Below are positions 49,569 through 63,946 of a stretch of 63,946 nt of DNA, one piece after another. The stretch covers positions 1 through 63,946 of the forward strand of contig CACZAY010000006.1 in the NCBI GenBank assembly GCA_902779265.1. The letters are read 5' to 3'. Numbering within the stretch: the first letter of the stretch is position 1; the number at the start of each line of letters is the position of its first letter. A model generated the notes under the pieces. It was not told where the DNA came from. It made no database searches and saw nothing but the letters and a program-made list of their open reading frames with translations. Origin of the DNA: an uncultured Bacteroidales bacterium (GTDB lineage Bacteria; Bacteroidota; Bacteroidia; Bacteroidales; UBA3663). A program made the position numbers and the translations under genes.

Positions 49569-50792
49569 ATGGCATTCGTAAACACAAACTTCACAAAAGT
49601 CAGCGAGTCGTACCTCTTCGTCGAGGTCGCCCGCCGCATCAAGGCATATCAGGAGGCTCACCCCGAGGCCAAAATCATCCGCATGGGCATCGGCGACGTC
49701 ACACGCCCCATCGTTCCAGCCGTCATCGAGGCACTCCACAAGGCAGTCGATGAAATGGGCACGGCCGACGGCTTCCGTGGCTACGGGCCAGAACAGGGCT
49801 ACGCCTTCCTGCGTGAGGCCATCTGCAACTACGACTTCAAGCAGCGCGGCATCGACATCCAGCCCGATGAAATCTTCGTGAGCGACGGCGCAAAGTCCGA
49901 CTGCGGCAACATCGGCGACATCCTTGGCCAACAGAACGTCATCGCCGTCACCGATCCCGTCTATCCCGTCTATGTCGATACGAACGTGATGGGCGGCCGC
50001 GCAGGCGACTTCGACGGCATCCGCTACAGCCGGATCTGCTATATGCCATGCACGCAGGAGAACGGTTTCGTGCCAACCCTGCCCTCGCAGCACGTCGATG
50101 TCATCTACCTCTGTTTCCCGAACAATCCGACAGGCACCACGTTGACCAAATCGCAGCTCAAAGTGTGGGTCGATTACGCACTACGCGAAAAAAGCATCAT
50201 TCTGTTCGATGCGGCCTACGAAGCCTTCATCACCGAAGACGACGTGCCGCACAGCATCTACGAGATTGAGGGTGCACGCCAATGCGCCATCGAGTTCCGA
50301 AGCTTCTCCAAGACGGCCGGATTCACGGGTCTGCGCTGCGGCTTCACCGTCGTTCCCAAGGAGCTTGTGGCCTACACCGAAGAGGGCAAAGCTGTCGCGC
50401 TCAACAGGCTCTGGAACCGCCGACAATCGACCAAGTTCAACGGCACGCCCTACATCGTACAGCGCGCAGCCGAGGCCGTCTATAGTCCCGAAGGCCGTGC
50501 TCAGATTATGGCCAACATCGCCTACTACCGCGAGAATGCCCGGCTGATGAAGCAGACCTTCGAGAGCATCGGCATCCCGGCATTCGGCGGCGTGAACAGC
50601 CCCTACGTCTGGATCAGGACTCCGCTCGACAGCTGGCAGTTCTTCGACCGACTGCTCGACGAATGTCACGTAGTGGGCACGCCAGGCGTCGGTTTCGGCC
50701 CATCCGGCCAAGGATATTTCCGTCTGACGGCGTTCGCCACGCACGAGGCCACACGCGAGGCCATGGAACGTATCAAGAAGTGGAAGCTTTGA
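49569..50792 (+). CDS. dapL: LL-diaminopimelate aminotransferase
   Basis: [48 protein letters not shown].. and ..[13 protein letters not shown].. (PLP Lys) are characteristic of DapL. Confidence 0.9.
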
Positions 50793-50879
50793 GTCATTGG
50801 CCAATGATATTATCCCCAGACACCCGCAGCGATTGTTTTCGTTGCGGGTGTAATATTTCTTTCACGTGGGCCATTGGCC

Positions 50880-53633
50880 TCAATAATAATAAATCTTTCC
50901 ATCTTCACCCACACCGCAGATGGAGACCTTCAGGTGGGCTGGACGCGCGCCGTTGTAGAACTGGATGTTTAGATTTCCGTCCTTGTCCGGATGGACATTC
51001 GGATTCCAATAGAGCGTGCGCCGATAATCGCTCGAATCGGGCAGTGCCGCGCCGGAATAGTCGCGATGGTAGAATTGTTCAGGATAGGCGAAGCCGTCAA
51101 TCAAGATGCGGCGGTCGCGGCGCATGGCCCGCTTCCCCTCGTTCGGAATCGGAACGACATCAAACCATACGTCGGGAACACCACGATTTTCTTCTTTGCC
51201 GACACCATTACGCATGTCATAGTCCGTAAAGACACGTACCTGTAGGATATGACGGGGATCAAGACGCTTCTTAAGAACTTGAGGAGACATTGGAGTCCCA
51301 ATACTACCTAATGTTGGTTCCGAGTACGTTTTTAATATTGCATGACCTTCAACCGATACCTTTAGATTGAATGATTGACGGGGATCATTCATGTTACCAA
51401 ACAATTCGCGCGCACTTTCATTCCAGAACATTATACCATTGAAGCAGCTATAATGCAACCCTTGGTCAATAGCATTATTCAACAACATATTGAAGTCATA
51501 GACAAATGCAGGTTTGCTGTAATCAAATGAATGCAAAGCGCGATGCACATTCTTCTTGATTGTAACATTTTTCAGAATATGGTCTGCATCATAGATTTCA
51601 TTTCGCGAAATATCTTCTTTCTCAATTTTCGAAGAATGAGTTTGTGCCCAAACATATGGTTTGCAGAATTTTGGGTAAAAAAAATCACGACGAACGTAAT
51701 AACTGGGAGAAACATAAGGATTGAGTTTTTCATAATCGATTAGGCTTGCAATACATTTTTTTATAGAATCTTTTTTTTCATAAGCGGTCATCATGAGAAT
51801 AGCCTGATCGTAGAAAGGAGGCATTTGAAAAATGAAATGGCCGTTACTGTCCACTTCGACCGCAATTCCTGCGATGTCACGACCTTTGTTCAACTCAGCC
51901 TCAACGATTATAGGGTGTTTTAAACCACTACTGTTTCGATTATATTGATCTTGTTGTGTATAAGTTTCCTGTCGTCTTTCTTCAACTTCTTCAATTTTTT
52001 TTTCAACTTCTTTTTGTAGCTTGTTTTCGAATCTTTCATTTAAATCTTCAAGCTCTTTCAACCCTTCTGCCTCATGCACATTTGCAAATTCGTCGTAAAG
52101 TACAATTTTGTTTTCTGGAGACAGTGTAAAAACGGCATTTCCCGTGTTATTCTTATCCACAATGTAATCCATCAGATCGAAACGCTCATACTCATCTTCT
52201 TTTAATTTGTAGATTTGACCTTCTACTGCAAATGATATCTCCGGCTGGAATCTCAGTTCCTCTACCGGCACATATTTCCGCCAGCCCTGAATCATCATCA
52301 GCTGGTCCAGTTTTTTTTGATGTTCCGCATCGTCGCCCTCAAAATAGCGCGCCGGATGAGCGACAAAACCACGCAGGTCGCCCGCCAGAAGCAGGTCGGT
52401 CAGGATGTTGCCATCGTCGTAGGTCGGTTCGTCACCGCGTCGGTCGCACACTGCAATACTCGCCGTTTTCAGTTGGCCGATGCTTGGCTGCAAGTTCAGT
52501 TTTTCAAACGGCTTTACGGCCAATGAATCAAACAAATTCAACTCGATTTTCTGTCCGATGTCACCGCGGTTCACGAATATCTGCCTTGTGGCCAATGGCC
52601 TTGCCTCCGTATCATAGGCCACAATCTCGTTCACGCCCGTCGGAAAATCTTTTGCGTCAATGGTTTGCGCATTTCGATTGAATGCAATCAACTTACCACG
52701 GCAGGTGACTGAAACGGCTGCAACGGCAACGCCATTGGCCACAATCCTGGCCTTCTGCCCGATCGGGTCGTAGGCAATGACCACGCCCGCTCCCTGGACT
52801 TCGGGCATTCTGGCCGTATATTTCTGCTCCAAATAGGTAAATTCCGCCTCCATCCGTTCGCCCTTTTGCGGCTTGATGGTAAGGACGCCACGCCCGTCAT
52901 CGTCGGTCTCAAGTTTTGTCCCATTGGCCAAAGAACCGATGATTTTCAATGGTTTTCCCTGCGCGTCAAGCACTTCGAATGCGACCCTGTTTTCCACATC
53001 AGCGAGTAGGGTTCCGCTCTCGGGATAGACCTTCACGTCGAGCCCCTCCTCCACACCCGCCAGGCGACGTTTCGGACGGTCAATGATACGCTTGTCGGCA
53101 TAGTTCCCAGTCTGCTCGGGCTTTTCGTAAATCGGCAGCACGCGGCTGTAAAGTCCCTCATAGTCACGGAAATAATCATTGGCCAACTCCTGATTGAAGA
53201 ACCAGCGGTCGTCAAAATCGCTGTGCGGCCGCTCCGTCACGTTGAAATTCAGCTGCCAGCGGGTGTAGGCGCGCAGTTCGTAGAAGCCAGAATACATCGT
53301 GTCTGGCAGGGCGAATTGGCCGAAACTCTGCGTATTATGATCCACGATGATTCGTTGACGTTCAACGAGATAGCCATCGGGCGAAAGCAGTTCGACATAC
53401 ATGATTTTGCTCATGTGGGATGGCCGATGGTCATCGGCCCGAAGCAAATAGGTCTTGAACCAGATCGTGTCGCCCACGAAATAGCTGTTGTTATCGGTAT
53501 GTACGTAGATTTTCTCCTGAACCTGCTCGCTGCTTCTCAGCTGATTTTCAAGTGAATCAATGGCATTGGCCAATGCCGTTTGAATCCCGAAGAACGCCAG
53601 CAGCGGCAACATGTTTTTCAAGTGATTTTTCAT
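50880..53633 (-). CDS. large secreted protein with N-terminal MG2 / alpha-2-macroglobulin-like fold; function unknown
   Basis: MKNHLKNMLPLLAFFGIQTALA signal peptide. ..KIYVHTDNNSYFVGDTIWFKTYLL..YVELLSPDGYLVERQ.. is MG2-like. The central third is compositionally foreign. Confidence 0.65.
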   Translation of the reverse strand: MKNHLKNMLPLLAFFGIQTALANAIDSLENQLRSSEQVQEKIYVHTDNNSYFVGDTIWFKTYLLRADDHRPSHMSKIMYVELLSPDGYLVERQRIIVDHNTQSFGQFALPDTMYSGFYELRAYTRWQLNFNVTERPHSDFDDRWFFNQELANDYFRDYEGLYSRVLPIYEKPEQTGNYADKRIIDRPKRRLAGVEEGLDVKVYPESGTLLADVENRVAFEVLDAQGKPLKIIGSLANGTKLETDDDGRGVLTIKPQKGERMEAEFTYLEQKYTARMPEVQGAGVVIAYDPIGQKARIVANGVAVAAVSVTCRGKLIAFNRNAQTIDAKDFPTGVNEIVAYDTEARPLATRQIFVNRGDIGQKIELNLFDSLAVKPFEKLNLQPSIGQLKTASIAVCDRRGDEPTYDDGNILTDLLLAGDLRGFVAHPARYFEGDDAEHQKKLDQLMMIQGWRKYVPVEELRFQPEISFAVEGQIYKLKEDEYERFDLMDYIVDKNNTGNAVFTLSPENKIVLYDEFANVHEAEGLKELEDLNERFENKLQKEVEKKIEEVEERRQETYTQQDQYNRNSSGLKHPIIVEAELNKGRDIAGIAVEVDSNGHFIFQMPPFYDQAILMMTAYEKKDSIKKCIASLIDYEKLNPYVSPSYYVRRDFFYPKFCKPYVWAQTHSSKIEKEDISRNEIYDADHILKNVTIKKNVHRALHSFDYSKPAFVYDFNMLLNNAIDQGLHYSCFNGIMFWNESARELFGNMNDPRQSFNLKVSVEGHAILKTYSEPTLGSIGTPMSPQVLKKRLDPRHILQVRVFTDYDMRNGVGKEENRGVPDVWFDVVPIPNEGKRAMRRDRRILIDGFAYPEQFYHRDYSGAALPDSSDYRRTLYWNPNVHPDKDGNLNIQFYNGARPAHLKVSICGVGEDGKIYYY

Positions 53634-53769
53634 TGGGTTGGGTGTTTTTTGACTGGATTTGTCGCGCAAATATAAAGATTTTGCACACAATCACCAAGTT
53701 CGGCTTACATTTTTATCAAAAATATAAAGAAATATAATACTATGTATTGCAAGGTAGTAAAATAATGCC

Positions 53770-53777
53770 TATATTTG
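53770..53777 (+). promoter_or_regulatory. -7 promoter box (TAtaTTTG) for the padR-pspC pair
   Basis: tatatttg lies 26 nt upstream of the ATG at 53803. Confidence 0.5.
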
Positions 53778-53802
53778 CGCCATCGGACATAAACATACGG
53801 AT

Positions 53803-54147
53803 ATGAACATTGAAAACGCAAAATCGCAGATGCGCAAGGGGATGCTGGAATACTGCATCCTACTGATACTGAACCGCGCGCCTTCGTACGCGACGGACAT
53901 CATCCGACGACTTGAAGAGGCTCAGCTGATTGTGGTCGAGGGAACGCTCTACCCCCTGCTCACACGGCTGAAGAACGACGGAATGCTGTGCTACGAGTGG
54001 AAGGAATCGCTCTATGGACCGCCACGCAAGTACTACGCGCTGACCGAGCAGGGCCGCGAATCGCTCCAGGCACTCGATGAGGCATGGGGAGCATTGGCCA
54101 ACACCGTAAATATCTTACGAAACGCTGAAAAACAAGACGAACAATGA
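53803..54147 (+). CDS. PadR family transcriptional regulator
   Basis: ..GMLEYCILLILNRAPSYATDIIRRLEE..EGTLYPLLTRLKNDGML..PRKYYALTEQG.. is the PadR winged helix. Confidence 0.85.
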   Translation: MNIENAKSQMRKGMLEYCILLILNRAPSYATDIIRRLEEAQLIVVEGTLYPLLTRLKNDGMLCYEWKESLYGPPRKYYALTEQGRESLQALDEAWGALANTVNILRNAEKQDEQ

Positions 54148-54986
54148 AGAAAAACATCAATATCAACCTTTTTGGCGTCAATTATGCCATCAACGAAGAC
54201 GCCTACGAGCTGCTCGAAACCTATCTCAACAGGGTCAAGCAATGTTTTGGCCAACGGGAAGGCGGCGAGGAAATAGCCGATGACATCGAACATCGCGTGG
54301 CCGAACTGCTCTGGGAGAAGAAGCAGCTGGGCGTCGAGACCATCGATCTGATGACTATCAAGACCATCCTGAAACAGATTGGAGAACCGGAGGAAATCAT
54401 GGGCGAAGAGGTTCCAAACGAGGATTTTTCGGCCAATGCTCCGGCTGAAGAAAACTCTGGAACGGGCGACGAAAATCCATCGGCCAAAGAGACAAAAACC
54501 GAAAAAGAGCCCCGGACAACCAAACGGAAGCTGTTCCGCGCGACACACGACAAGGTGCTGGGCGGCGTGCTGAGTGGACTCACCTATTATATGGGCGGCA
54601 GCAATCCGAACCTGCTACGCGCCATTGTGATTGCCATAGCATTGATTCCAATGTTCTGTTCACCGCTTTCCTTACTTTCGCACACATTCTTAGGCGGTTT
54701 CAGCCTCATCGTCAGCCTGTTCAACCTGTGTGACCCCGCATTCTGGAGCATCGTCATCTATATTTTATGCTGGATTCTCATTCCTGCGGCCGATACACCG
54801 GAAAAACGCGAGCAGCTGATGGGCAGGAAAGAGACATTGGCCAATACCCCAGACAAAAACAACTCGTCGGACGGCTGCATGAAAGGTTGTATCGTAGCAA
54901 TTATCGTCGTGGCAGTGCTGATTCTGGCGACATTCTACGGTTTATTTTCCTTCTTGCAACAGATGATAATGTTCAATCACATCTAA
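54144..54986 (+). CDS. PspC-domain membrane protein
   Basis: ..KLFRATHDKVLGGVLSGLTYYMG.. is a PspC domain followed by TM segments. ATGA overlap with padR. Confidence 0.75.
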   Translation: MKKNININLFGVNYAINEDAYELLETYLNRVKQCFGQREGGEEIADDIEHRVAELLWEKKQLGVETIDLMTIKTILKQIGEPEEIMGEEVPNEDFSANAPAEENSGTGDENPSAKETKTEKEPRTTKRKLFRATHDKVLGGVLSGLTYYMGGSNPNLLRAIVIAIALIPMFCSPLSLLSHTFLGGFSLIVSLFNLCDPAFWSIVIYILCWILIPAADTPEKREQLMGRKETLANTPDKNNSSDGCMKGCIVAIIVVAVLILATFYGLFSFLQQMIMFNHI

Positions 54987-55011
54987 GAAAAAAATGTTTA
55001 TAACTTATCAA

Positions 55012-55051
55012 AACGAAAGGCGATTTTTTCGGAAATCGCCTTTCGTTTTTT
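55012..55051 (+). terminator. rho-independent terminator
   Basis: AACGAAAGGCGATTT .. AAATCGCCTTTCGTT stem followed by TTTTTT. Confidence 0.75.
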
Positions 55052-55233
55052 GATAATGCCAAGGTGGAATTTGGCTTAAAATGCGAGAAAAAATTTGAAA
55101 CATTATTTAGAATACGAAACATTTTCGAGACTTAGAGTCTGTTTTTATGTGGAAAATAATTTAAAGAGGTGGAAAATTTAGGTGTAATAATTCTTTTTGA
55201 CGAATTTTATTTGCATGGCCGATTTTTTTGCCG

Positions 55234-55241
55234 TATCTTTG
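55234..55241 (+). promoter_or_regulatory. orphan -7 promoter box (TAtcTTTG) with no downstream ORF
   Basis: tatctttg at 55234 with a TTTG about 24 nt upstream. The only thing downstream on this strand is a terminator hairpin at 55333-55363. Confidence 0.4.
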
Positions 55242-55247
55242 CAGTGC

Positions 55248-55363
55248 AATTCGAAAGAGTTGCTCCCAAATGTCTCTATAAAATACTGACTTTTTAGGGT
55301 CGTCAGTTTTAGTTAGTAGTATTAGTGGTTGGAATCAGCTCCCTGTGAAGGGCGCTGATTTTT
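55248..55363 (+). ncRNA. candidate small RNA (~115 nt, family not recognised)
   Basis: Promoter box at 55234. Internal hairpin CTGAC..GTCAG (about 55286-55306). Terminal hairpin AATCAGC tccctgtgaagggc GCTGATT plus a T-run. No ORF longer than 4 codons. Confidence 0.25.
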
Positions 55364-55371
55364 CTTTTCTC

Positions 55372-56667
55372 CTATCCCCGCAGAACTTTTCGCGCCATCG
55401 CGGTCTGCACTACACTACGCACGACAAGATACACCACGAAGGCGAGCCACAAGTGATGGTTCGTCGGCAGCGCCATTGGCCAAAACCAGAGGACAAAGAA
55501 TACGGCTGCTGCAATAGCAAGCGTATAGAGCATCTGCCGTGTGGCCGTCGCGCCGATGAAGATGCCATCCCACATAAACGTTGCAAAACCGGCGAGGGGA
55601 ATGGCCAATGTCCACGGAAGATAGGGCTGGGCGGCATCAATGACAGATGTATCATCGGTCAAAAGGCGGAGAATGCCATTGGCCGCAAAGAAATAAATCG
55701 TCGTGAAAAGCAGCGTCACTCCACTTGCCCAACCGAAAAGGCGACGGACGCACATCATCTTTCTCTCATGACTCTTCGCACCGACATACTTACCAACAAG
55801 CGCCTCACCCGCCAACGCGAATCCGTCGCAAAAATAGCTGAACAGGATAAAGAGCTGTATGAGTAGTGTATTTACGGCCAATAGCATGTCGCCCTGACGC
55901 GCGCCGAAACTCGTGAAAGCTGTCGTGACGGCAATGATGCAGATCATGCGTAGGAAAATGTCACGGTTGACACGAAAGAAATCGGCCAAGCTCAATTCCC
56001 GCGCCGTATCGATAGTTCCGTCAGCCGGATGAAGATGGATGCGCCGCACGAGGAAAAGTGCCACAGCGAGCCCACAATACTGCGAAATGACAGTACCCAA
56101 GGCAACGCCACGCACGCCCAATCCGAACTGGAAGACAAGCAGAGCCGATACAGCAATGTTAAGCAGGTTTTGGCCAATGGCGATATACATCGGGAAACGC
56201 GAATTCTGCATTCCGACGAACCATCCGTTCAGCGCAAAAAGCGAGAGCACGGCCGGCGCCGCCCAGATGCGAATATGGAAATAGGTGATGGCCAATGCCC
56301 AGACTTCATCGGTCGGAGCGATGATGATGTGCGCAAGCCACTCAATGGGCCATTGCAGCGCAAATATCCCGACACCACACACGACGGCCACCGTAAGCGC
56401 CATGCGCAACACGCGACGCTCCCCTGCGCCATCCTCGCGGCCAAAGCGTTGTGCCGTCAGACCGCTGCTTCCCATACGCAGAAAGGCAAACAACCAATAA
56501 ATCATGTTGAAGATGAGCCCACCCACCGATATGGCGCCTATGGCCAATGCTCCGCCGTCGGCCGAATCAATATGGCCAACGATGCTGAGGTCAATGATGC
56601 CCAGCAGCGGAATGGTGATGTTGGTGATGATACTCGGAATCGCAATGCGAAGGATTTCTCGGTTCAT
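55372..56667 (-). CDS. MATE family efflux transporter
   Basis: MNREILRIAIPSIITNITIPLLGIIDLSIVGH.. with a 12-TM pattern. Confidence 0.85.
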   Translation of the reverse strand: MNREILRIAIPSIITNITIPLLGIIDLSIVGHIDSADGGALAIGAISVGGLIFNMIYWLFAFLRMGSSGLTAQRFGREDGAGERRVLRMALTVAVVCGVGIFALQWPIEWLAHIIIAPTDEVWALAITYFHIRIWAAPAVLSLFALNGWFVGMQNSRFPMYIAIGQNLLNIAVSALLVFQFGLGVRGVALGTVISQYCGLAVALFLVRRIHLHPADGTIDTARELSLADFFRVNRDIFLRMICIIAVTTAFTSFGARQGDMLLAVNTLLIQLFILFSYFCDGFALAGEALVGKYVGAKSHERKMMCVRRLFGWASGVTLLFTTIYFFAANGILRLLTDDTSVIDAAQPYLPWTLAIPLAGFATFMWDGIFIGATATRQMLYTLAIAAAVFFVLWFWPMALPTNHHLWLAFVVYLVVRSVVQTAMARKVLRG

Positions 56668-56772
56668 TGGCCAAGGAAATCAATAACCTCACCCGAACTG
56701 GCCGAGTGAGGTAAATTGGAAATAAATAATGGTCGTATTTTCTCCCCTTAGGGAGGTCTTGAAAAGAGGAAT

Positions 56773-57906
56773 TTACCCCTTCAGCGACTTCTCGAAGCGT
56801 TCGAGGAAGAGGTCGCATTCCTTTTGGCCGATGCAGAGCGGCGGCAGGATACGCAACACATTGGTGCCAGCGGCTCCGGTGAATACGTGCTGGTCGTAAA
56901 TCAGACGGTTGCGGACCTCCTTGTACGGATAGTCGAACTCGATGCCGATCATCAGGCCACGGCCACGCAGTTCCTTCAAGCCGGGGATGTTCATCGACTT
57001 GAGCTGCTGCATCAGATATTCGCCCTGCTTGGCGGCATTCTCGACCAACTTCTCGTCCTGAATCACATCGAGCACGGTGCAGGCCAATGCGCAGCCCAGA
57101 TGGTTACCTCCGAATGTCGTACCCAATTGGCCATAAACCGGAGTGAATTTGGGCGAAATCAGCACGCCGGCGAACGGATAACCGTTGGCGATGCCCTTGG
57201 CCACAGTGATGATGTCGGGACGGATGCCTGCATATTGGTGGGCGAAGAACTTGCCTGAACGGCCGTAGCCCGACTGAATCTCGTCGAGGATGAGCACTAC
57301 GTTGTTTTCTTCGGTCACCTTGCGTAGCTGCTGCATGAACTCGGTGGTCGGAATGTGGATTCCGCCGACGCCGCTGATGCCCTCGATGATGACGGCTGCG
57401 ACATCACCATTGGCAATGCTTGCCTTGATGCCCTCAATGTCGCCCAACGCGAAGAATTCGACCGGGAAAGTCGAGTTGATTGGTGCCTGGATCTTCGGAT
57501 TCTGGGTGACGTTAACCGCAGCCGAAGTACGTCCGTGGAAGGCGTGGGAGAATGCAATAACTTTCTTCTTGCCGGTATAGAACGATGCCAGTTTCAGCGC
57601 GTTCTCGTTGGCCTCAGCACCCGAATTGATGAGGAACAGCTGGTAGTCATCGTAGCCGCTCACCTTGCCAAGTTTTTCGGCCAATTTGACCTGCAATGGG
57701 TTCTTCACTGCATTCGAGTAGAAACACAGCTTCGATGCCTGCTCCTGCATGGTCTGCAAATAGCGTGGATGGCCATGGCCGATGGAAATCACGGCGTGTC
57801 CGCCATAGAAGTCGAGATACTCCTGACCTTTTTCGTCGTACACATAGCATCCTTTGCCATGGTCGATGGTCACATCAAAAAGTGGATATACGTCAAAAAG
57901 TTTCAT
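56773..57906 (-). CDS. argD: acetylornithine aminotransferase (class III aminotransferase)
   Basis: ..DFYGGHAVISIGHGHP.., ..LILDEIQSGYGRSGKFFA.. It lies adjacent to argC. Confidence 0.85.
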   Translation of the reverse strand: MKLFDVYPLFDVTIDHGKGCYVYDEKGQEYLDFYGGHAVISIGHGHPRYLQTMQEQASKLCFYSNAVKNPLQVKLAEKLGKVSGYDDYQLFLINSGAEANENALKLASFYTGKKKVIAFSHAFHGRTSAAVNVTQNPKIQAPINSTFPVEFFALGDIEGIKASIANGDVAAVIIEGISGVGGIHIPTTEFMQQLRKVTEENNVVLILDEIQSGYGRSGKFFAHQYAGIRPDIITVAKGIANGYPFAGVLISPKFTPVYGQLGTTFGGNHLGCALACTVLDVIQDEKLVENAAKQGEYLMQQLKSMNIPGLKELRGRGLMIGIEFDYPYKEVRNRLIYDQHVFTGAAGTNVLRILPPLCIGQKECDLFLERFEKSLKG

Positions 57907-58018
57907 TTTCTTTTAGGTTTTGAGGTTATGAGGTCGCGTCGCTTGTGAGGTTTTGAGGTAATATTCAAAGGCGATTCCAGAGGTATACAACCTAAAAACC
58001 TTACAACCTTATGACCTT
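57907..58018. repeat. second, inverted copy of the ~100-bp structured intergenic element seen at 39364-39467
   Basis: AGGTTTTGAGGTTATGAGGTCGCGTCGCTTGTGAGGTTTTGAGGT .. CAACCTAAAAACCTTACAACCTTATGACC. It fills the argC-argD spacer. Confidence 0.75.
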
Positions 58019-58504
58019 TTAAAATGCGATTGCCTTCAAGTTCAGGCCAGCCTTTTCGTCGAGACCGAACATCAGGTTCATGTTCTGGACGGCTTGTCCG
58101 ACGGCACCCTTCAGCAAGTTGTCAACCATCGAGGTGACGACAACCTTGCGGCCGAACACATCGACATGGACGAGTGCCTTGTTGGTGCCGACCACCTGCT
58201 TGAGGTCGATGGCTGCGTCACTGTAGTGAGTGAATGCGGCATCGGCATAGAAATCCTTGTAGAGCGTGGCAACTTCATCGGCCGACATTGCCTTCTTCAG
58301 ACGGATGACCTCGGTGCAGAAGATGCCACGTGCGAAGTCGCCGCGATACGGAATGAAATCGACCGTGATGCCGTCGGCCTCATAGCCCTCGTTGAGCGTA
58401 TCGACCACACGCGGAGCACCCGCTGGAGCCAGTTCGTTCAACGTCTGCGTGATTTCGTGCAGATGCTGGTGCGTGAAGAGGCGCGTGTCCGTCAGGCGGT
58501 TCAC
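58019..58504 (-). pseudogene. argC: N-acetyl-gamma-glutamyl-phosphate reductase, 3' half only (about 160 of about 320 codons)
   Basis: ..FTHQHLHEI..DFIPYRGDFARGIF..NLLKGAVGQAVQNMNLMFGL.. is the ArgC C-terminal domain. Homology stops at about 58504 and no N-terminal NAD-binding half follows. Confidence 0.8.
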
Positions 58505-58930
58505 CGGCGCACGGTACGCAGATGGGCACTCGGCGGAAGTGGCACGTTAGCCGTTGCAGCGATTCTGGTGCTGGCCGTTATTCTGGTTCCGACGATCAAA
58601 ACGATGCACCAGTATAGCACGCAGTATGTGGCAAGCATCGAGACCGAAGCGTTCCGAGGCGGTGACGAGATGAGTATGAAGCTCTGTGAGGCGATGGTCA
58701 AGATGAAACGGGGTCAGTGGGTGGAAGCCGAACGGATAGCAGACACGCTGCTGGAGCAGACCGCTGATTCGGAGGACGAAGAGGACATAGACATCCGCCA
58801 GAGCGCCGAATGGATCAAAGCCCTCTGCCTCATGCATGACGGCAAGATCTTCTCCGCACGAAAACTGCTGAAACGTATCGCTGCCGGTGACAGTTATTAC
58901 AGTCCGCTCGCTGAAGAGCTATTGAGATAA
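58505..58930 (+). pseudogene. 5'-truncated gene for a small single-pass membrane / helical-repeat protein
   Basis: The frame reads ..RRWALGGSGTLAVAAILVLAVILVPTIKTMHQ..LLKRIAAGDSYYSPLAEELLR*. There is no start codon before the TM helix, and the first in-frame ATG is at 58604. The tracked ORF start at 58094 is only antisense read-through of argC. Confidence 0.5.
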
Positions 58931-58999
58931 ACGGTTTTTCAATGTTTCTGCCGCAAAGAAACAGGTAAATCAATTATTAATAATTAAACATTTACACAC

Positions 59000-59701
59000 A
59001 TGAAAAAAGTTTTGTTTTTCTCCGCTGTTGCACTGAGTGCAATCATGATGGTATCGTGCAACAAGCCTGCTGCTCAGACTGAAGAGAAAGAGGCTATCGA
59101 GCAACCTGCATCGCAAGAGATGGACGCTATCCGCACCGCGCTGGCTCTGGCTCAGTATGGTTACGCTGCTGAATCTCCGGCTGCTCTGATCGAGGCTGCT
59201 GACATTCTCGCTTCTACTCCGGTACAACCGGTAGCCGTTGAGGGTGAGGTAGGTGCACAGAACGAGAACGAAGGTGAGAAGGCTGCAAAGCCAGAGGTTA
59301 CTGTTGAGCAACTGCTTGCTGACGCTCGCGCACTGACCGAGGACGCAAACCTGCTGGCTCTGGCTGACAAGGTAGCTGCTAAGGCTGCTGAAAGCGCAGA
59401 GGCAACTCGTGGTGCTTACGGTGGTCCGAAGTATCAACGTGACCGCGTTTACTCTCACAGCTACATTCAGTACGTTCAGGCTTTCTATGCAAGCCAAATC
59501 GCTGAGGTATCTGTAGTAGGTGACGGTGATACCGACCTTGACCTCTACATCTATGACGAGAACGGTAACCTCATCGTTTCTGACACCGGTTACACCGATC
59601 GTTGCTACGTTCGTTGGTGCCCGCGTTGGACAGGTAACTTCCTCGTTCGCGTGGTTAACCGTGGTGGTGTTTACAACAACTTCACAATTGCTACTAACTA
59701 A
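59000..59701 (+). CDS. lipoprotein with C-terminal pre-peptidase (PPC)-like beta-sandwich
   Basis: MKKVLFFSAVALSAIMMVSC lipobox; Ala/Glu-rich helical region; C-terminus ..VSVVGDGDTDLDLYIYDENGNLIVSDTGYTDRCYVRW..GNFLVRVVNRGG.. fits the D.DL.LYD.NG pattern. Confidence 0.6.
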   Translation: MKKVLFFSAVALSAIMMVSCNKPAAQTEEKEAIEQPASQEMDAIRTALALAQYGYAAESPAALIEAADILASTPVQPVAVEGEVGAQNENEGEKAAKPEVTVEQLLADARALTEDANLLALADKVAAKAAESAEATRGAYGGPKYQRDRVYSHSYIQYVQAFYASQIAEVSVVGDGDTDLDLYIYDENGNLIVSDTGYTDRCYVRWCPRWTGNFLVRVVNRGGVYNNFTIATN

Positions 59702-59719
59702 TTCTTCTTTGTCGGCCTG

Positions 59720-60634
59720 ATGGAAATGCCTATCAGGCCGGCATGTCTTTTGATGGCTATGAATCGTTCTATTCTTATCTGTGTGTTAGCAACGATGTTG
59801 CTGTTACCGGTGCATGCTACGAAGCGTGCGCTTATTATCGGTATAGGTGCTTATCCTGAATCCACCGGATGGGCGAAGATCAACGGAGATAAGGATGTAG
59901 CTACCGTAGAGCAGATGCTGATCAGCAAAGGTTTTCTCAAAGCCAACATCGTCAAGTTGAGCAATGCGCAGGCTACAGCCGCCGGTATCAAAGCGGCGTT
60001 GGAGAACCTCATTCAGGTATCTGCCAAGAACGATTTTGTGTATATTCATTTCTCCGGTCACGGTCAGCGTATCACCGACACGAGCGGAGATGAGACGAGT
60101 GGTTATGACGAAGCATGGGTACCCTATGACGCGCAATTCGCCTACGAAGAAGGATCGGGTTTGTTCGTCAAGAAAGGCGGTTACCAAGGTCAGAACCATT
60201 TAGTGGACGATGAACTCAACGAATACCTCTACCGCCTGCGTCAGAAAGTGGGACGCGAAGGACAGATCATCGTTATTGCCGATGCTTGCCACAGTGGAGG
60301 CGGGTCGAGAGCGCTGGATGATGAGGACGAAGAACCGTTGGTGGTCAGAGGTACACGCGATGATTTCATCATTCCTTCCGCATCCAGAACGCCGCAGGTA
60401 GGAGGACATGTTGTGGATTGGATCTTTATCAGCGCCTGCAAATCGACCCAGAGTAACTACGAGTACCATGGTACCGGTTCGCTGACCTATGCGTTACAGC
60501 AGTTATCGGCGCAGTTTGACCAGCTCTCTTGTGCGGAGTTACAAGCCCGCTTACGTGCCATCCTGCGGGATATCATTCCTTTCGTGCAGACACCTACCGT
60601 GGAGACTCCGACGCCGGACGACACATTCTTTTGA
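59720..60634 (+). CDS. secreted peptidase C14 (caspase/orthocaspase-like)
   Basis: Signal peptide (alternative start at 59753, MAMNRSILICVLATMLLLPVHA). KRALIIGIGAY..; catalytic dyad contexts YIHFSGHGQ (His codon 60059-60061) and VIADACHSGGG (Cys codon 60287-60289). Confidence 0.8.
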   Translation: MEMPIRPACLLMAMNRSILICVLATMLLLPVHATKRALIIGIGAYPESTGWAKINGDKDVATVEQMLISKGFLKANIVKLSNAQATAAGIKAALENLIQVSAKNDFVYIHFSGHGQRITDTSGDETSGYDEAWVPYDAQFAYEEGSGLFVKKGGYQGQNHLVDDELNEYLYRLRQKVGREGQIIVIADACHSGGGSRALDDEDEEPLVVRGTRDDFIIPSASRTPQVGGHVVDWIFISACKSTQSNYEYHGTGSLTYALQQLSAQFDQLSCAELQARLRAILRDIIPFVQTPTVETPTPDDTFF

Positions 60635-60639
60635 TAACC

Positions 60640-61065
60640 ATGCGACGCGCCTTGTGTATATATACATTGGGTTTCTTGGCTGCATTTCTATGCGCAGGAT
60701 GTATATGGGCACAAAGCGCCAAAACGGAGACATCTGCCCGAAAAGCGGCTAAGTATGTAGCCCAAAAACTCTGCAAAGAGCACAAAGGGGAAGAGTTGTT
60801 GGATGACCTGGAAGAGATGATGGCCGGCCTGATGTTAGCCTGCACCCTTCCACCGGAGCCTATCGATCTCGAAGAAGAAGAACAAAATCCTGATTCCGAC
60901 GACCAGAATGCCACACGGCGTGACCGACGAAACCGCAGACAGCGGGACAAGCAGCGTCGTGACCGACAGCGAGACAAACGGTCTTCCCGAACCGACTCAC
61001 GCCGCGTTCGCACGCGGTACAGAACGCGTAGAAGGACGGAAGACGACAACGAATCAGCCTCATGA
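60640..61065 (+). CDS. small lipoprotein-like protein with an acidic block followed by a poly-Arg tail
   Basis: MRRALCIYTLGFLAAFLCAGC.. signal/lipobox; ..EPIDLEEEEQNPDSDDQ..; then RRDRRNRRQRDKQRRDRQRDKRSSRTDSRRVRTRYRTRRRTEDD. Its stop overlaps the next start (ATGA at 61062-61065). Confidence 0.6.
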   Translation: MRRALCIYTLGFLAAFLCAGCIWAQSAKTETSARKAAKYVAQKLCKEHKGEELLDDLEEMMAGLMLACTLPPEPIDLEEEEQNPDSDDQNATRRDRRNRRQRDKQRRDRQRDKRSSRTDSRRVRTRYRTRRRTEDDNESAS

Positions 61066-63602
61066 AAACCCTTCTGTTATCCATACTGATTTCTTCTATG
61101 TCCATGGCCGACTCGCTGCTCGACCAGGCCGTCCTTTTGCAGGATCAGGCGATGCACGAGCAGGCTTTGGCGCAATGCGAGCAACTCTTAGCCGCAGCGG
61201 ACTCGTCAGGCTATACGGATACGGAATGGAAAGTGTCGGTGCTCCAAACGATCATCACCTCCCTCGATGAGTTGGGGCGCTACGATGAGGCTATCTATTA
61301 CTGCAAGCAAATCGTGGCGATGGGTGCGGACGTGCCGCCGGATGAACGCGCGTACGCGCAGGCGGACATGGCTTCTTTCTATGTGCTGATAGGCCATCTG
61401 CCGCAAGCTACCCGAACCGCTTTCGAGGCCATCAAAACCGCCAAACAGTATATTGCTGCCAATAATTCAAAGTGGTTAGCGGCTCGTGATTATGACGCGT
61501 TCGCAGAAGGCGCGCAATTGATGGAATACGTCGTTCGGCAATGTTTCACCGCTTTGTCCGAAGGTTATGTGGCGGCAGACGAAGCATCTCAAGCCATGCT
61601 GGTGGCAGAGTTTGATGTTCCTGCCTTCAAGCAACTCTTCCGTACCTCCTATGAGCAAGTATCGGTCATGGCTGATAAAGCCGCTGCAGGTTCGGCGCTC
61701 TATCGTATGCTGTGCAGTCAGCAGCAGTCCTATGGCGCCATGCTATGCGAAGCCATCCTGCTGGAGGCGGATTTTGCGCCGACCGAACAAGACAAGCGCG
61801 CTATCTTGGGTCAGATAGCCGGCTTGAATCCTACCTTACCTGACTATGAACTGCGTGCCGATGTGCGTATTGCGGCATCGTTTGCGCAAGAAGAGAAATA
61901 CGACAGCGCGCAGGTCTATTGGGAGAGAGTCGCGCAGACGGACTCGCTTCAGACCTATGCCGCTGTGATTGAAGAGAATAAAGCCTGGACGGCCGTGCAA
62001 CACAGGGATTGGACGCATGCCCTGCCATGGCTCCGGCAATCGCTGCAAGACAAACGTCAGAATCTGAAAAGCGAGTTCTTGTGGCTCAGCGCACGTTCCA
62101 GACAACGGACGTGGTTGACAAACTACGCATGGTATTTTGCCCAGAATATATCCCTCTGTGCCCTTGCCGAGCACCCGGACGAAGTCAATGCCTTTATCTA
62201 TGACAACGTACTGCTCGAGAAGGGTATTCTGCTATCTACCGAAACGGAACTGGAGATGCTCTTGCAGGAAACGGGAGGCAGAGCGGTGTTAGACAGTCTG
62301 CACGCATTGCGTCATATACGGCATCAGTTGTATCTGTCGGAAAAGGACCAAACCGTTCATCCGGATACTCTTGCCGCTCGCAAACGGGCTGCAGCCAATC
62401 TGGAATTGCATATCCTCCGAGCCTGTCACAATGTAGGGGATTTCACGCGACTGCTGGACTTGACCTGGCAGGATGTCCAAGCCCGATTAAAGGACCATGA
62501 GACGGTGGTGGAGTTCATCCAGACCGAAGACGCCGACAACGAGCGCTGGATGCAAGCCCTTGTGCTGCGCAAAGGATGGTCATACCCGAAACTGCTGACG
62601 GTCGGAAAAGCTAAAGAGGTGGAGCAATGGTGTGCGTCCAACACCCTCTATGAGAACAAAGAAACTACCCGTCGCATATGGCAACCGATTATAGAAACGG
62701 CGGGCATACAAGCCGGTCAAACGGTCTATTTCTCGCCGGACGGTATATTCTATCTGACCGGCATCGAATACCTGCCTGTAGATACAACAACCCTCTTTGA
62801 CCGCTATAACATGGTTCGCCTCTCCTCTTCACGCGAACTGTGCCGGCAAACGCAGGCGAATCCGGAGGAACAAACCATCCTCTATGGAGGTGTGATCTAT
62901 GCGGATGACGAGAACGACCGACGAATCGATTACCTCTCTTCTACTTTGGACGAGGTGCAGCAGATCGATTCGATCATACCGCACAGTGCGCTCTATACCG
63001 GATTGGAGGCTACCGAAGAGTCGTTCAAAGACCTGTCCGGACATTCTCCGCAAACGCTTCATATGGCAACACACGGCTTCTATCTGAAGAACAAAAAAGC
63101 ACAATCCATGATGCAGAAGAATGTGCAGTTCGTGCGTCTGACGGAGCGGCAACGGATCAATATCGAAGATTATGCATTGGCGCGCTGCGGCTTGCTCATG
63201 GCGCATTCGTCTTCTTCGTATTCGGGAGACTCGATCTCCACCACGCGGGACGACGGTGTCTTGACCGCCAAAGAGATTGCCGCTTTGGATCTGCACAAGA
63301 CCGAACTGGTCGTTCTATCCGCCTGCAAATCCGGACTCGGAGACATCACCGTGGACGGTATAGCGGGTCTGCAGCGCGGTTTCAAGAAAGCAGGCGTACA
63401 AGCAATGCTGATGACCTTATGGCCCATTGACGATACGGCCAGCAGGATTTTTATGTACGCCTTCTATCAGAGTCTTGTTGCAGGCCAAACCAAGCAAGCG
63501 GCCTTACGGCATGCCCAGCAGACACTGCGCGCGATGGAGGAGTATAACTATCCGCGTTATTGGGCTGCGTTTGTACTGTTGGACGCTATTCCTAAAGAAT
63601 AA
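61062..63602 (+). CDS. TPR-like repeat + CHAT domain (caspase-fold) protease with N-terminal signal-like segment
   Basis: The N-terminal ~500 aa are helical repeats. The C-terminal CHAT domain has ..TLHMATHGFYL.. (His codon 63072-63074) and ..LVVLSACKSGLGD.. (Cys codon 63324-63326), ending ..RYWAAFVLLDAIPKE. Confidence 0.85.
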   Translation: MKTLLLSILISSMSMADSLLDQAVLLQDQAMHEQALAQCEQLLAAADSSGYTDTEWKVSVLQTIITSLDELGRYDEAIYYCKQIVAMGADVPPDERAYAQADMASFYVLIGHLPQATRTAFEAIKTAKQYIAANNSKWLAARDYDAFAEGAQLMEYVVRQCFTALSEGYVAADEASQAMLVAEFDVPAFKQLFRTSYEQVSVMADKAAAGSALYRMLCSQQQSYGAMLCEAILLEADFAPTEQDKRAILGQIAGLNPTLPDYELRADVRIAASFAQEEKYDSAQVYWERVAQTDSLQTYAAVIEENKAWTAVQHRDWTHALPWLRQSLQDKRQNLKSEFLWLSARSRQRTWLTNYAWYFAQNISLCALAEHPDEVNAFIYDNVLLEKGILLSTETELEMLLQETGGRAVLDSLHALRHIRHQLYLSEKDQTVHPDTLAARKRAAANLELHILRACHNVGDFTRLLDLTWQDVQARLKDHETVVEFIQTEDADNERWMQALVLRKGWSYPKLLTVGKAKEVEQWCASNTLYENKETTRRIWQPIIETAGIQAGQTVYFSPDGIFYLTGIEYLPVDTTTLFDRYNMVRLSSSRELCRQTQANPEEQTILYGGVIYADDENDRRIDYLSSTLDEVQQIDSIIPHSALYTGLEATEESFKDLSGHSPQTLHMATHGFYLKNKKAQSMMQKNVQFVRLTERQRINIEDYALARCGLLMAHSSSSYSGDSISTTRDDGVLTAKEIAALDLHKTELVVLSACKSGLGDITVDGIAGLQRGFKKAGVQAMLMTLWPIDDTASRIFMYAFYQSLVAGQTKQAALRHAQQTLRAMEEYNYPRYWAAFVLLDAIPKE

Positions 63603-63617
63603 AATATGATCCTATAC

Positions 63618-63946
63618 ATGAAAAAACTCACTCTCATCGGCCTTGGTCTCCTGTTCTGCCTCACTGCGAGTGCAGAGTTGAGCGAGAAGAAAATGCTTAG
63701 CGATGCAAAAGCCATCTCTAAAGTGCTGTACTCCGATCCCGACCAGTGCAAGCACCTTGACAAACCCATGCTGGATATTATCTGCAATGGCAGTACGGCG
63801 CAACGCAGATGGTTAGTGGAGCGCTTGCTGGAACTGGATATCAACCGCCTAAGTGAGAAGAACAAACGGCAGTACCTGAGTTGGTTCTTGCTGCTTATCA
63901 AATATCAGAGTCTGGACGCACCTTATTACGTACAAATCGCGGGTGA
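63618..63946 (+). CDS. secreted hypothetical protein, 3' end outside the window
   Basis: Not in the ORF track because there is no stop before the window end. Hand translation gives (MILY)MKKLTLIGLGLLFCLTASAELSEKKMLSDAKAISKVLYSDPDQCKHLDKPMLDIICNG.. It starts 4-16 nt after the CHAT stop. Confidence 0.5.
   Translation, partial: MKKLTLIGLGLLFCLTASAELSEKKMLSDAKAISKVLYSDPDQCKHLDKPMLDIICNGSTAQRRWLVERLLELDINRLSEKNKRQYLSWFLLLIKYQSLDAPYYVQIAG

Follow-up and report, generated by a model that had tools for sequence, protein, structure and literature searches.

An operon of putatively exported caspase-fold, HtrA-like and retropepsin-like proteases in uncultured Bacteroidales, recovered as a fragment at the end of a probably chimeric contig

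Genes and features of the operon

We analysed a stretch of 63,946 nucleotides (contig CACZAY010000006.1, assembly GCA_902779265.1, an uncultured Bacteroidales bacterium), referred to here in its full length as the window. An earlier reading of this DNA, made from the sequence only, had described a five-gene operon of exported caspase-fold proteases at the end of the window. We find that the native unit comprises nine genes rather than five, and that positions 58461-63946, the very end of the window, hold only its middle 5.5 kb out of about 12.6 kb. On at least five independent contigs the genes lie on one strand in the order T, S, A, L, C14, R, H1 (CHAT1), H2 (CHAT2) and P. The complete nine-gene operon is seen in loci L002, L003 and L004 and in the metagenome-assembled genome (MAG) RUG11479 (L009), and all nine genes were mapped by tblastn. 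The parts of the operon that fall within the window are as follows.

58461..58930, forward strand: 3' part of A, codons 18-173; the first 17 codons, the start codon, the sigma gene and the operon promoter lie outside the window
59000..59701, forward strand: L, a 233-amino-acid lipoprotein with the lipobox MVSC at amino acids 17-20
59709..59743, forward strand: GC-rich stem-loop followed by a U-rich tract, terminator- or attenuator-like, between L and C14
59753..60634, forward strand: C14, predicted exported metacaspase/orthocaspase-like peptidase; reading frame open from 59720 (304 amino acids), likely start ATG 59753, MAMNRS...
60640..61065, forward strand: R, a 141-amino-acid protein, predicted to be exported; its stop overlaps the H1 start (ATGA)
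61062..63602, forward strand: H1, an 846-amino-acid TPR-CHAT protease, predicted to be exported; signal peptide MKTLLLSILISSMSMA before DS, scaffold of about 470 amino acids, His671 and Cys755
63606..63946, forward strand: H2, first 113 codons of a second CHAT protease, predicted to be exported; start at 63606 or 63618, cut by the window end

The tight spacing reported earlier holds for the gaps of 5, -4 (the ATGA overlap) and 3 or 15 nucleotides. It does not hold for the supposed gap of 18 nucleotides between L and C14, which is likely to be about 51 nucleotides. We place the start of C14 at 59753 rather than at 59720, because the ATG at 59720 lies within the hairpin and the other lineages start C14 downstream of the hairpin.

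The first and last genes of the native operon encode proteases. T is a 380-amino-acid HtrA-like trypsin (Trypsin_2, 4e-26, with NCBIfam matches of the HtrA, DegS and MarP type) that carries the motifs TNHHV and GNSGGP; profile searches gave no match to a PDZ domain, and the C-terminal 180 amino acids have no domain assignment. P, of 682 amino acids, combines strong TPR matches with matches to Asp_protease_2/gag-asp_proteas and a DTGA motif, and is retropepsin-like. S, of 184 amino acids, resembles extracytoplasmic-function (ECF) sigma factors. It matches TIGR02937 over its full length at 3.7e-8 and 33.2 bits, below the cut-off of 42.9; a profile built from four S sequences matches the SigH, SigW and SigL structures at 3e-4 to 5e-3, and the homologue of S in L015 reaches 51.5 bits against TIGR02937, above the cut-off. 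A has 173 amino acids and consists of a short cytoplasmic helix, one transmembrane segment (WALGGSGTLAVAAILVLAVILVP, preceded by RRTVRR) and a periplasmic TPR-like domain of about 105 amino acids whose TPR matches are weak; its full gene is found at L001 1987-2508 and in the orthologues. In L019 and L015, homologues of A come after an ECF sigma gene, and the one in L015 has a weak match to an anti-sigma NCBIfam model (NF052375, 4e-5). The transmembrane segment and the gene position fit a putative single-pass anti-sigma-like protein.

In L009 a terminator-like hairpin and a housekeeping-type TAnnTTTG box precede the operon, and a bidirectional terminator-like hairpin follows it. No ECF-type promoter was found upstream of the operon or upstream of L, only the TAnnTTTG box before the first gene. 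Likewise, a scan with the sigma-70 consensus, which does not cover Bacteroidota promoters, showed no enrichment over shuffled sequences. The spacer between A and L (window 58931-58999; L009 7870-7938) contains a small hairpin, GTTTCT-loop-AGAAAC, that is kept in L008 (about 6900-6960) despite the lack of sigma and anti-sigma genes there and that could be a regulatory RNA or DNA element. Relative to L002, L009 has an insertion of about 4.6 kb directly upstream of the operon (L009 841-5480) that encodes a protein with a Fic/DOC motif (HPFQDGNGR) and small phage-like genes, indicating that the operon adjoins a variable, mobile region.

The lipoprotein L is built of an N-terminal four-helix part, a T-R-G-A linker (amino acids 136-139) and a C-terminal eight-strand, PPC-like beta-sandwich (GDGDTDLDLY). 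Its earlier description as a PPC lipoprotein stands as to the lipobox. As to the domain, it stands on the predicted fold and on family-level matches and fails by Pfam on the window protein itself, which matched no family, including PPC (PF04151) at E <= 1. Among 38 relatives of L, 29 matched PF04151 at E <= 1, the best at 3.2e-4, which is not significant. The AlphaFold2 (AF2) model has a predicted local distance difference test score (pLDDT) of 82, and residues 144-232 form eight strands at a pLDDT of about 90. Foldseek aligned the model with the C-domain of the subtilisin Tk-SP (3afg, 8e-7), the collagen-binding domain of ColH (3jqw, 1e-4), a collagenase PPC domain (5sv5, 4e-4) and 5iku. Ahead of the sandwich the linker has the form [TS]-R-G-A-x-G-G-P, with Arg or Lys at the basic position in 92 of 95 family members, and is a candidate cleavage site for an Arg/Lys-specific protease. 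Of all the operon components L is the most widely distributed, with 506 relatives at 90% clustering. Matches of L or R to the PG1828 lipoprotein and RNase E families in Pfam and NCBIfam came from the signal peptide or from low-complexity sequence and were rejected; neither database gave anything meaningful for the two proteins.

The stem-loop between L and C14 is present in all six lineages with a stem of 13-15 bp (15 bp at L009 8648-8682). Paired changes occur on both of its arms: CTGAT/ATCAG has become CTAAT/ATTAG, and GCCGGCC/GGCCGGC has become GCCGACC/GGTCGGC. Given an attenuator-like hairpin directly behind its gene, L is probably made in excess over the products of the downstream genes.

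C14 matches PF00656 at 2.3e-19 and 70.5 bits (cut-off 21.4) across profile positions 2-232 of 233. The two motifs of its catalytic dyad, FSGHG at amino acids 111-115 (His) and DACHSGG at 188-194 (Cys), lie where they had been reported and are kept in six lineages, confirming the call of a C14 caspase with an intact dyad. Its matches in the Protein Data Bank (PDB) are AtMC4, GSU0716 and metacaspases 1 and 9, and it aligns with the SGHG and DSCHSGG motifs of AtMC4 and GSU0716. The Asp of NGDKD, the Ser of SGH and the Asp of DAC align with Asp95, Ser156 and Asp211 of TbMCA2, where the corresponding residues line the S1 pocket (PMC4357240). Orthocaspases are described in PMC6426788 as cutting after basic residues, and from these residues cleavage after Arg or Lys would be expected of C14. 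Its putative signal peptide ends in LPVHA, before TKR.

R consists of a predicted signal peptide (ending in CIWA, before QS), a short helical part, an acidic stretch with 15 Asp/Glu and no Lys/Arg in 40 amino acids, and a basic tail of 51 amino acids (ATRRDRRNRRQRDKQRRDRQRDKR...RRVRTRYRTRRR). The protein had been described as an acidic, poly-Arg lipoprotein with a C-terminus of almost pure Arg. It is indeed acidic and Arg-rich, but the tail holds 21 Arg and 2 Lys in 51 residues, interspersed with 9 acidic ones. The lipobox was rejected: the Cys of its 'AGC' is not conserved and a site of the signal peptidase I type is. Sequence conservation of the tail (NA.RRNRR.R...QRR.R...RR.R.RYR.RR) extends even to members at E values of 1e-8 to 1e-15. 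An antisense reading frame of 151 amino acids lies opposite R (window 60594-61049, reverse strand) and was chosen by one gene caller in L001. We rejected it as a gene, since stops (2-4) interrupt it in five of the six lineages, whereas the R frame is open in all six; codon-position analysis was of no help in telling the frames apart, as both have the same wobble position. For the same reason Arg-rich genes such as R are under-called in databases, and the R family may be under-counted. As it stands the family is tiny, with seven clusters at 90% identity and 11 representatives among 1.84 billion proteins. In every context recovered, from three divergent lineages, R lies directly upstream of a CHAT gene, including loci without C14 or L (L020 and L021) and one with the order L-R-CHAT (L022). 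This arrangement marks the CHAT protease, and not C14, as the partner of R. The basic tail of R contrasts with the strongly acidic H1 and H2 (net charge -32 and -43).

H1 matches CHAT (PF12770) at 5.7e-54 and 184 bits, with a cut-off of 24, and carries ATHGF at amino acids 669-673 and LSACKSG at 752-758, which bears out the earlier identification of a TPR-CHAT protease with an intact dyad. The His and Cys are kept in all orthologues and are invariant across 28 diverse CHAT proteins. Pfam TPR matches in H1 fall below threshold. In the AF2 model (pLDDT 81, predicted template-modelling score 0.80) residues 1-474 are all helical and residues 480-840 form an alpha/beta domain. Foldseek aligned the model over its full length with Csx29 (8eey_B, 1e-14), DdvA (8rw5, 3e-10) and the human, yeast and worm separases (5e-10 to 6e-5). 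The loop between His671 and Cys755 is modelled with low confidence, yet it is highly conserved and basic. Orthologue comparison shows the helical N-terminal region diverging faster than the CHAT domain. A match of residues 14-154 to PfaD (NCBIfam and PDB) falls in this helical region and was treated as spurious.

The fifth gene of the earlier description, a secreted protein, does begin with an export signal (MKKLTLIGLGLLFCLTASA, before E), but it is the 5' end of a second CHAT protease rather than a generic secreted protein. Its reading frame continues in L001, which is 100% identical to the window there. The full-length H2 of L009 has 1197 amino acids, matches CHAT at 1.2e-49 and 169.8 bits, and carries ATHGF and LSACKTG. 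The N-terminal regions of the CHAT paralogues do not align with one another.

Judged by a basic n-region, a hydrophobic core and a small-residue cleavage site or lipobox, all of which are conserved in orthologues, T, L, C14, R, H1, H2 and P appear to be exported. S has no export signal, and A has its internal transmembrane segment. Thus, the view that all five products in the window begin with a signal peptide or lipobox is upheld as to signal-like N-termini, and a clear lipobox is confined to the 233-amino-acid protein. A crude hydrophobicity-based signal-peptide test was also applied to 80 metagenome loci. Signal-like N-termini were found for C14 (18 of 25), CHAT (30/36), trypsin (17/20) and Asp protease (4/4) proteins and for L (62/72), and for none of the 10 sigma and 8 anti-sigma proteins. 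N-terminal signal peptides are also present in most of the distant TPR-CHAT homologues retrieved, including many from other phyla. The belief that known CHAT modules are cytoplasmic is wrong: most of these distant homologues carry signal peptides, and DdvA has a periplasmic TPR-CHAT domain (PMC11506125). Exported CHAT proteins are common, only unstudied.

Conservation and neighbourhoods of the gene cluster

The core L-C14-R-H1 is present in four species-level MAGs of uncultured Bacteroidales, with H1 identity down to 51%. The gene order seen in the window is likewise conserved elsewhere, on at least five independent contigs and in four species-level MAGs. Gene content around the core varies. 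L008 and L010 have the core and H2 (with P as well in L008) and lack T-S-A, L012 has the four core genes only, between DUF349 and serS, and the syntenic site in Paludibacteraceae contigs holds T-C14-L instead. The cluster occupies different chromosomal sites in related species, in variable neighbourhoods.

For a wider view, metagenome contigs were scanned with a profile of L and annotated with hidden Markov models built from the operon proteins, which gave 41 loci of at least 5 kb. A gene for a C14, CHAT, trypsin or Asp protease lies within 10 kb of the L relative in 38 of these 41 loci. C14 or CHAT genes account for 36 loci (29 with CHAT, 22 with C14), trypsin genes are found in 16, and genes for TPR-Asp proteases in four. 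A sigma gene is present in 10 loci, in eight of them together with an anti-sigma gene. In eight loci the genes repeat the order C14, sigma, anti-sigma, L, (trypsin), CHAT, (CHAT) ... Asp protease, and the S-A pair also adjoins C14 in L019 and L015. The operon family is common in gut, rumen and environmental metagenomes, where the annotation of each component goes no further than 'hypothetical' or the name of a domain.

Some of these neighbourhoods contain further genes. A gene for an Ion_trans-type channel of 246-258 amino acids adjoins an exported TPR-CHAT gene in two unrelated loci (L002 559-5188 and L020 7108-10523), which hints at a functional pair of channel and CHAT protease. In L002 this lies just ahead of the operon, as Ion_trans followed by a 997-amino-acid CHAT protein and then a 242-amino-acid protein. 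L015, whose CHAT protein has 27% identity to H1, carries two further CHAT genes, a second C14 gene and a gene for a 1052-amino-acid NOV_C-domain protein upstream of its sigma/anti-sigma/C14/CHAT block (L015 1-9975), and ten small genes between the CHAT gene and the TPR-Asp protease gene. This arrangement indicates that the protease islands are modular.

Resemblance to known systems and competing explanations

Literature searches returned no description of an exported C14/CHAT operon and, for a periplasmic TPR-CHAT protein, only the study of DdvA. The earlier view that the arrangement is uncharacterised therefore agrees with the literature searched. What is new here is R, an undescribed partner family, and L, a widespread marker lipoprotein. 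Parts of the operon do resemble characterised systems. In Craspase (type III-E, Cas7-11/gRAMP with Csx29), the TPR-CHAT protease cleaves a small partner, Csx30, which frees the ECF-type sigma factor RpoE. Csx29 is the best structural match of H1 (8eey_B, 1e-14), but Craspase acts in the cytoplasm, is activated by RNA and is attached to a CRISPR effector, whereas H1 begins with a signal peptide. Within +/-10 kb, L002, L004, L008 and L009 contain neither cas genes nor CRISPR-related Pfam families, and no similarity between R and Csx30 was detected. In eukaryotes securin, a small, charged, disordered pseudosubstrate, binds and holds separase. H1 is similar to separase in joining a large helical scaffold to a CHAT/caspase-like domain, and R is small, charged and largely of low complexity, co-encoded with H1 and translationally coupled to it. 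R has no sequence relation to securin, however, the compartment here is the bacterial envelope, and the interaction between R and H1 is one that we infer.

In the RpoE-RseA-RseB-DegS pathway, DegS clips RseA. The operon is similar in that it places a putative ECF sigma factor and a putative single-pass anti-sigma beside a protease of the HtrA/DegS family, with a further lipoprotein that could modulate cleavage. It differs in that T lacks a PDZ domain, A is unrelated to RseA, cysteine and aspartic proteases are added, and most clusters lack the sigma pair. C14 shares SGHG, D-x-C-H-S-G and the acidic S1 residues with metacaspases and orthocaspases (MEROPS C14B: AtMC4, TbMCA2 and GSU0716). These characterised members are cytosolic, whereas C14 has a signal peptide, a single short domain of about 280 mature residues and a place within an operon of exported proteases. 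The NTP-dependent conflict systems of Kaur et al. 2020 (PMC7159879) draw on the same C14, CHAT and trypsin families with TPR and have variable gene content, and secreted or signal-peptide-bearing versions are not mentioned there. In contrast to those systems, the operon and its flanks contain no STAND/NACHT, vWA, other NTPase or effector-associated adaptor domains, and the products are predicted to be exported. The match of the operon to 'caspase_w_EACC1' is weak and partial (30.5 bits against a cut-off of 140).

The closest counterpart in working appears to be DdvA-DdvS, of which the operon would be a split, multi-protease form. DdvA, which H1 matches over its full-length model (Foldseek, 3e-10) and weakly in sequence, has been proposed to act through its periplasmic TPR-CHAT part as the site-1 protease on its own anti-sigma linker, ahead of RseP (PMC11506125). 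Like DdvA, the operon has a TPR-CHAT protease of the separase/Craspase type with a His-Cys dyad, here predicted to be periplasmic, and pairs it genetically with a putative ECF sigma factor and a putative single-pass anti-sigma. In DdvA the CHAT part is fused to the anti-sigma, whereas H1 and H2 appear to be separate soluble proteins with signal peptides and without an anti-sigma domain; A is a separate protein of 173 amino acids without CHAT and has none of the zinc-binding anti-sigma domain of DdvA. The operon family further differs in having two or three CHAT paralogues together with C14, HtrA-like and retropepsin-like proteases, L and R, in lacking a nearby CRISPR or CBASS (cyclic-oligonucleotide-based antiphage signalling system) regulon, and in its hosts, which are Bacteroidales rather than Myxococcota.

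By analogy with these systems, our tentative interpretation of the operon is a module for regulated proteolysis that sits in the envelope and is coupled to an ECF sigma factor, R being its securin- or Csx30-like partner, and we put this reading at somewhat less than an even chance. In such a module, the separase/Craspase/DdvA design would be split over separate polypeptides. R, as a largely disordered pseudosubstrate, substrate or chaperone, would hold or target the acidic TPR-CHAT protease or proteases. The putatively Arg/Lys-specific C14 and the HtrA-like T would cut exposed basic sites as activating or upstream proteases, candidate sites being the tail of R, the T-R-G-A linker of L and the basic His-Cys loop of H1. 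In versions with S and A, a site-1 cut in the periplasmic domain of A would lead to release of the ECF sigma factor. L, made in excess, may anchor or restrain the proteases or be processed by them. The earlier proposal of an envelope-located double-protease module anticipated part of this, in that two intact, apparently exported peptidases are linked to a PPC-fold lipoprotein and an Arg-rich protein; the unit it described was incomplete.

Several observations weigh against this reading. The sigma/anti-sigma pair occurs in only 8-10 of the 41 L-linked loci and is absent from the close relatives L008, L010 and L012, indicating that sigma release is not the core function. The switch may control the proteases instead of being controlled by them. 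A housekeeping-type TAnnTTTG promoter stands before the first gene of each cluster version, with no obvious ECF promoter. In addition, the score of S falls short of the NCBIfam cut-off, and A extends into the cytoplasm with no more than about 40 residues. R is confined to a narrow clade and is not needed by most related clusters, and its topology was read by sequence inspection with ambiguous flanking charges.

The absence of the sigma/anti-sigma pair from most clusters would also suit an envelope surveillance, defence or self-destruction battery that the pair, where present, merely switches on. In that case TPR scaffolds would recognise phage proteins, competitor toxins or the cell's own envelope proteins, and the proteases would destroy them or trigger death or dormancy. 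Gene content does vary between close relatives, the N-termini of the CHAT paralogues do not align, and the helical region of H1 diverges faster than its CHAT domain. Ion_trans genes adjoin CHAT genes in two unrelated loci, the relatives in L019 and L015 lie among toxin-antitoxin and mobile genes, and DdvA has been proposed as a sensor of phage-associated proteins in the periplasm (PMC11506125). However, PADLOC returned generic trypsin and caspase domain matches and no system-level match, no flank examined contains an NTPase, nuclease or other typical defence partner, and in several genomes the cluster sits among housekeeping genes. A role in defence or cell death, which the sequence-only reading had also raised, is thus possible and finds no specific support in these matches; we consider the surveillance battery rather unlikely. 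Another reading is ordinary extracytoplasmic proteolysis, either protein foraging or the maturation of surface and secreted proteins by convertases. The hosts are rumen or gut Bacteroidales, all the proteases are predicted to be exported, and PPC domains are typical appendages of secreted proteases. Gingipains, fragipain and PmC11 are other exported clan-CD proteases of Bacteroidales with such roles, and Arg-specific exported clan-CD peptidases are well known in this group through gingipain RgpB (PMC4357240). Against this, profile searches found no C-terminal sorting domain of the type IX secretion system and no SusC/SusD-type uptake genes, and enzymes of the caspase-fold and separase type that carry long TPR scaffolds are selective proteases, not bulk ones. 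Regulation and not digestion is indicated by the dedicated partner R, by the sigma/anti-sigma pair and by the attenuated stoichiometry, and we regard ordinary proteolysis as distinctly unlikely.

A further alternative concerns R alone, as the precursor of a cationic peptide, antimicrobial or polyanion-binding, whose anionic pro-piece masks the tail until CHAT or C14 matures it. The succession of signal peptide, 40-amino-acid acidic stretch and 51-amino-acid basic tail would suit such a precursor, as would the translational coupling of R to a protease gene and the conserved R-CHAT pairing. Yet the tail has interspersed Asp/Glu and is conserved as sequence, unlike fast-evolving antimicrobial peptides, no exporter or immunity gene was found, a C14 specific for Arg/Lys would cut the tail to pieces instead of setting it free, and the family is tiny. 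We consider this highly improbable. More broadly, the clusters marked by L may constitute a widespread, undescribed class of envelope protease cascades in Bacteroidota and possibly beyond. Exported metacaspase-like, CHAT, HtrA-like and retropepsin-like proteases would form a periplasmic recognition-cleavage network, in some lineages with R as a securin-like Arg-rich partner, that signals through an ECF sigma factor or acts on ion channels, a periplasmic counterpart of caspase/separase signalling that serves invader surveillance or controlled self-damage. We put this forward as a speculation with more chance of being wrong than right by a wide measure, on a level with the surveillance battery.

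In the literature searched, DdvA is the only periplasmic TPR-CHAT protein to have been studied, and in the operon family the same logic is seen in a simpler form, split over several proteins. The family supplies stand-alone, putatively exported CHAT proteases, a candidate dedicated partner or substrate in R, an exported metacaspase homologue with predicted Arg/Lys specificity, a constant lipoprotein partner in L and sometimes a sigma/anti-sigma read-out. If the cascade is true, caspase- and separase-type regulated proteolysis would operate in the bacterial envelope, with testable substrate-protease pairs. What should surprise a specialist is an exported operon with proteases of three catalytic classes together with the R-CHAT pair.

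The contig junction and the host palindrome

The operon copy in the window is a non-functional fragment: it has no promoter and no sigma factor, and both A and H2 are truncated. On its other side, the window sequence up to 58480 belongs to a palindrome-rich genome whose argC gene is likewise cut off. The two features that define this boundary are as follows.

58019..58504, reverse strand: truncated argC (N-acetyl-gamma-glutamyl-phosphate reductase), 3' half only; part of the palindrome-rich genome of window 1-58480
58461..58480, no strand: junction, 20 bp common to argC of one genome and the anti-sigma gene of the other

The Pfam family Semialdhyde_dhC_1 covers only profile positions 57-165 in the window argC, and the N-terminal half of argC was not found upstream in any frame. 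On contig L013 argC is intact (338 amino acids) and is followed by argG and argR. L013 was located by exact look-up of the neighbouring aminotransferase and is 100% identical to window 50773-58480. L001, located by exact look-up of H1, is 100% identical to window 58461-63946 and diverges upstream, where it has genes for a trypsin-like protease and a sigma-like protein and the whole of the 173-amino-acid A. Both contigs come from sample ERZ27280307. In L001-L004 and L009, which are all the related loci that extend upstream, similarity to the window begins exactly at 58461, and the window junction is absent from every other contig compared. Given two 100% identities that overlap by 20 bp, with genes truncated on both sides, the junction is most likely a chimeric join of two Bacteroidales genomes of one community through a k-mer overlap of the k=21 type. 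The source of the operon is an uncultured Bacteroidales bacterium 99% identical to MAG RUG11479, with relatives labelled Paludibacteraceae. The junction affects any analysis that treats the window as a single genome.

The sequence-only reading had noted that the block lacks the host palindrome and had taken it as horizontally acquired. The absence is real: the 8-mer TTGGCCAA has 58 copies in window 1-56667 and none in 56668-63946. The inference of horizontal transfer was rejected, as the change coincides with the junction of two sources and the operon's native flanks are also poor in TTGGCCAA, with only 0-2 copies per about 20 kb (L002, L004, L008-L012 and L016-L018) against 10-11 copies per 12-13 kb on the argC-side contigs. 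The local gap in TTGGCCAA is not decisive by itself, because L013, from the palindrome-rich genome, has beyond the junction a stretch of about 7 kb with one copy. G+C content falls across the junction from 55.5% to 52.4%, and a plasmid megablast of the region gave no match.

The alternative, a real junction produced by very recent transfer, would have a RUG11479-like piece of the operon recombined into argC through the 20-bp microhomology. A fragment without the host palindrome and with 52.4% G+C against 55.5% in the rest of the window could be taken as foreign DNA, and related operons do occur at different chromosomal sites in related species. Yet both parental arrangements exist intact and 100% identical on separate contigs of one sample, the overlap is exactly the 20 bp that a k=21 graph join predicts, the fragment is the final 5.5 kb of the window, and the junction is seen in no other contig. 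A real insertion would also inactivate argC and leave the operon without a promoter and truncated at both ends. We judge a true transfer improbable. The practical lesson is that a host repeat missing at a contig end can mean chimeric assembly and not horizontal transfer.

The palindrome itself is a separate observation. TTGGCCAA occurs about once per kb in window 1-56667, far above the expectation from base composition, and is also found in L013 and L014, which represent the same organism; an uptake-signal-like sequence and a repeat element are both possibilities. Its extended forms ATTGGCCAAT and CATTGGCCAATG occur 14 and 11 times in window 1-56667, and a second palindrome, TCGGCCGA, has 21 copies in the same interval.

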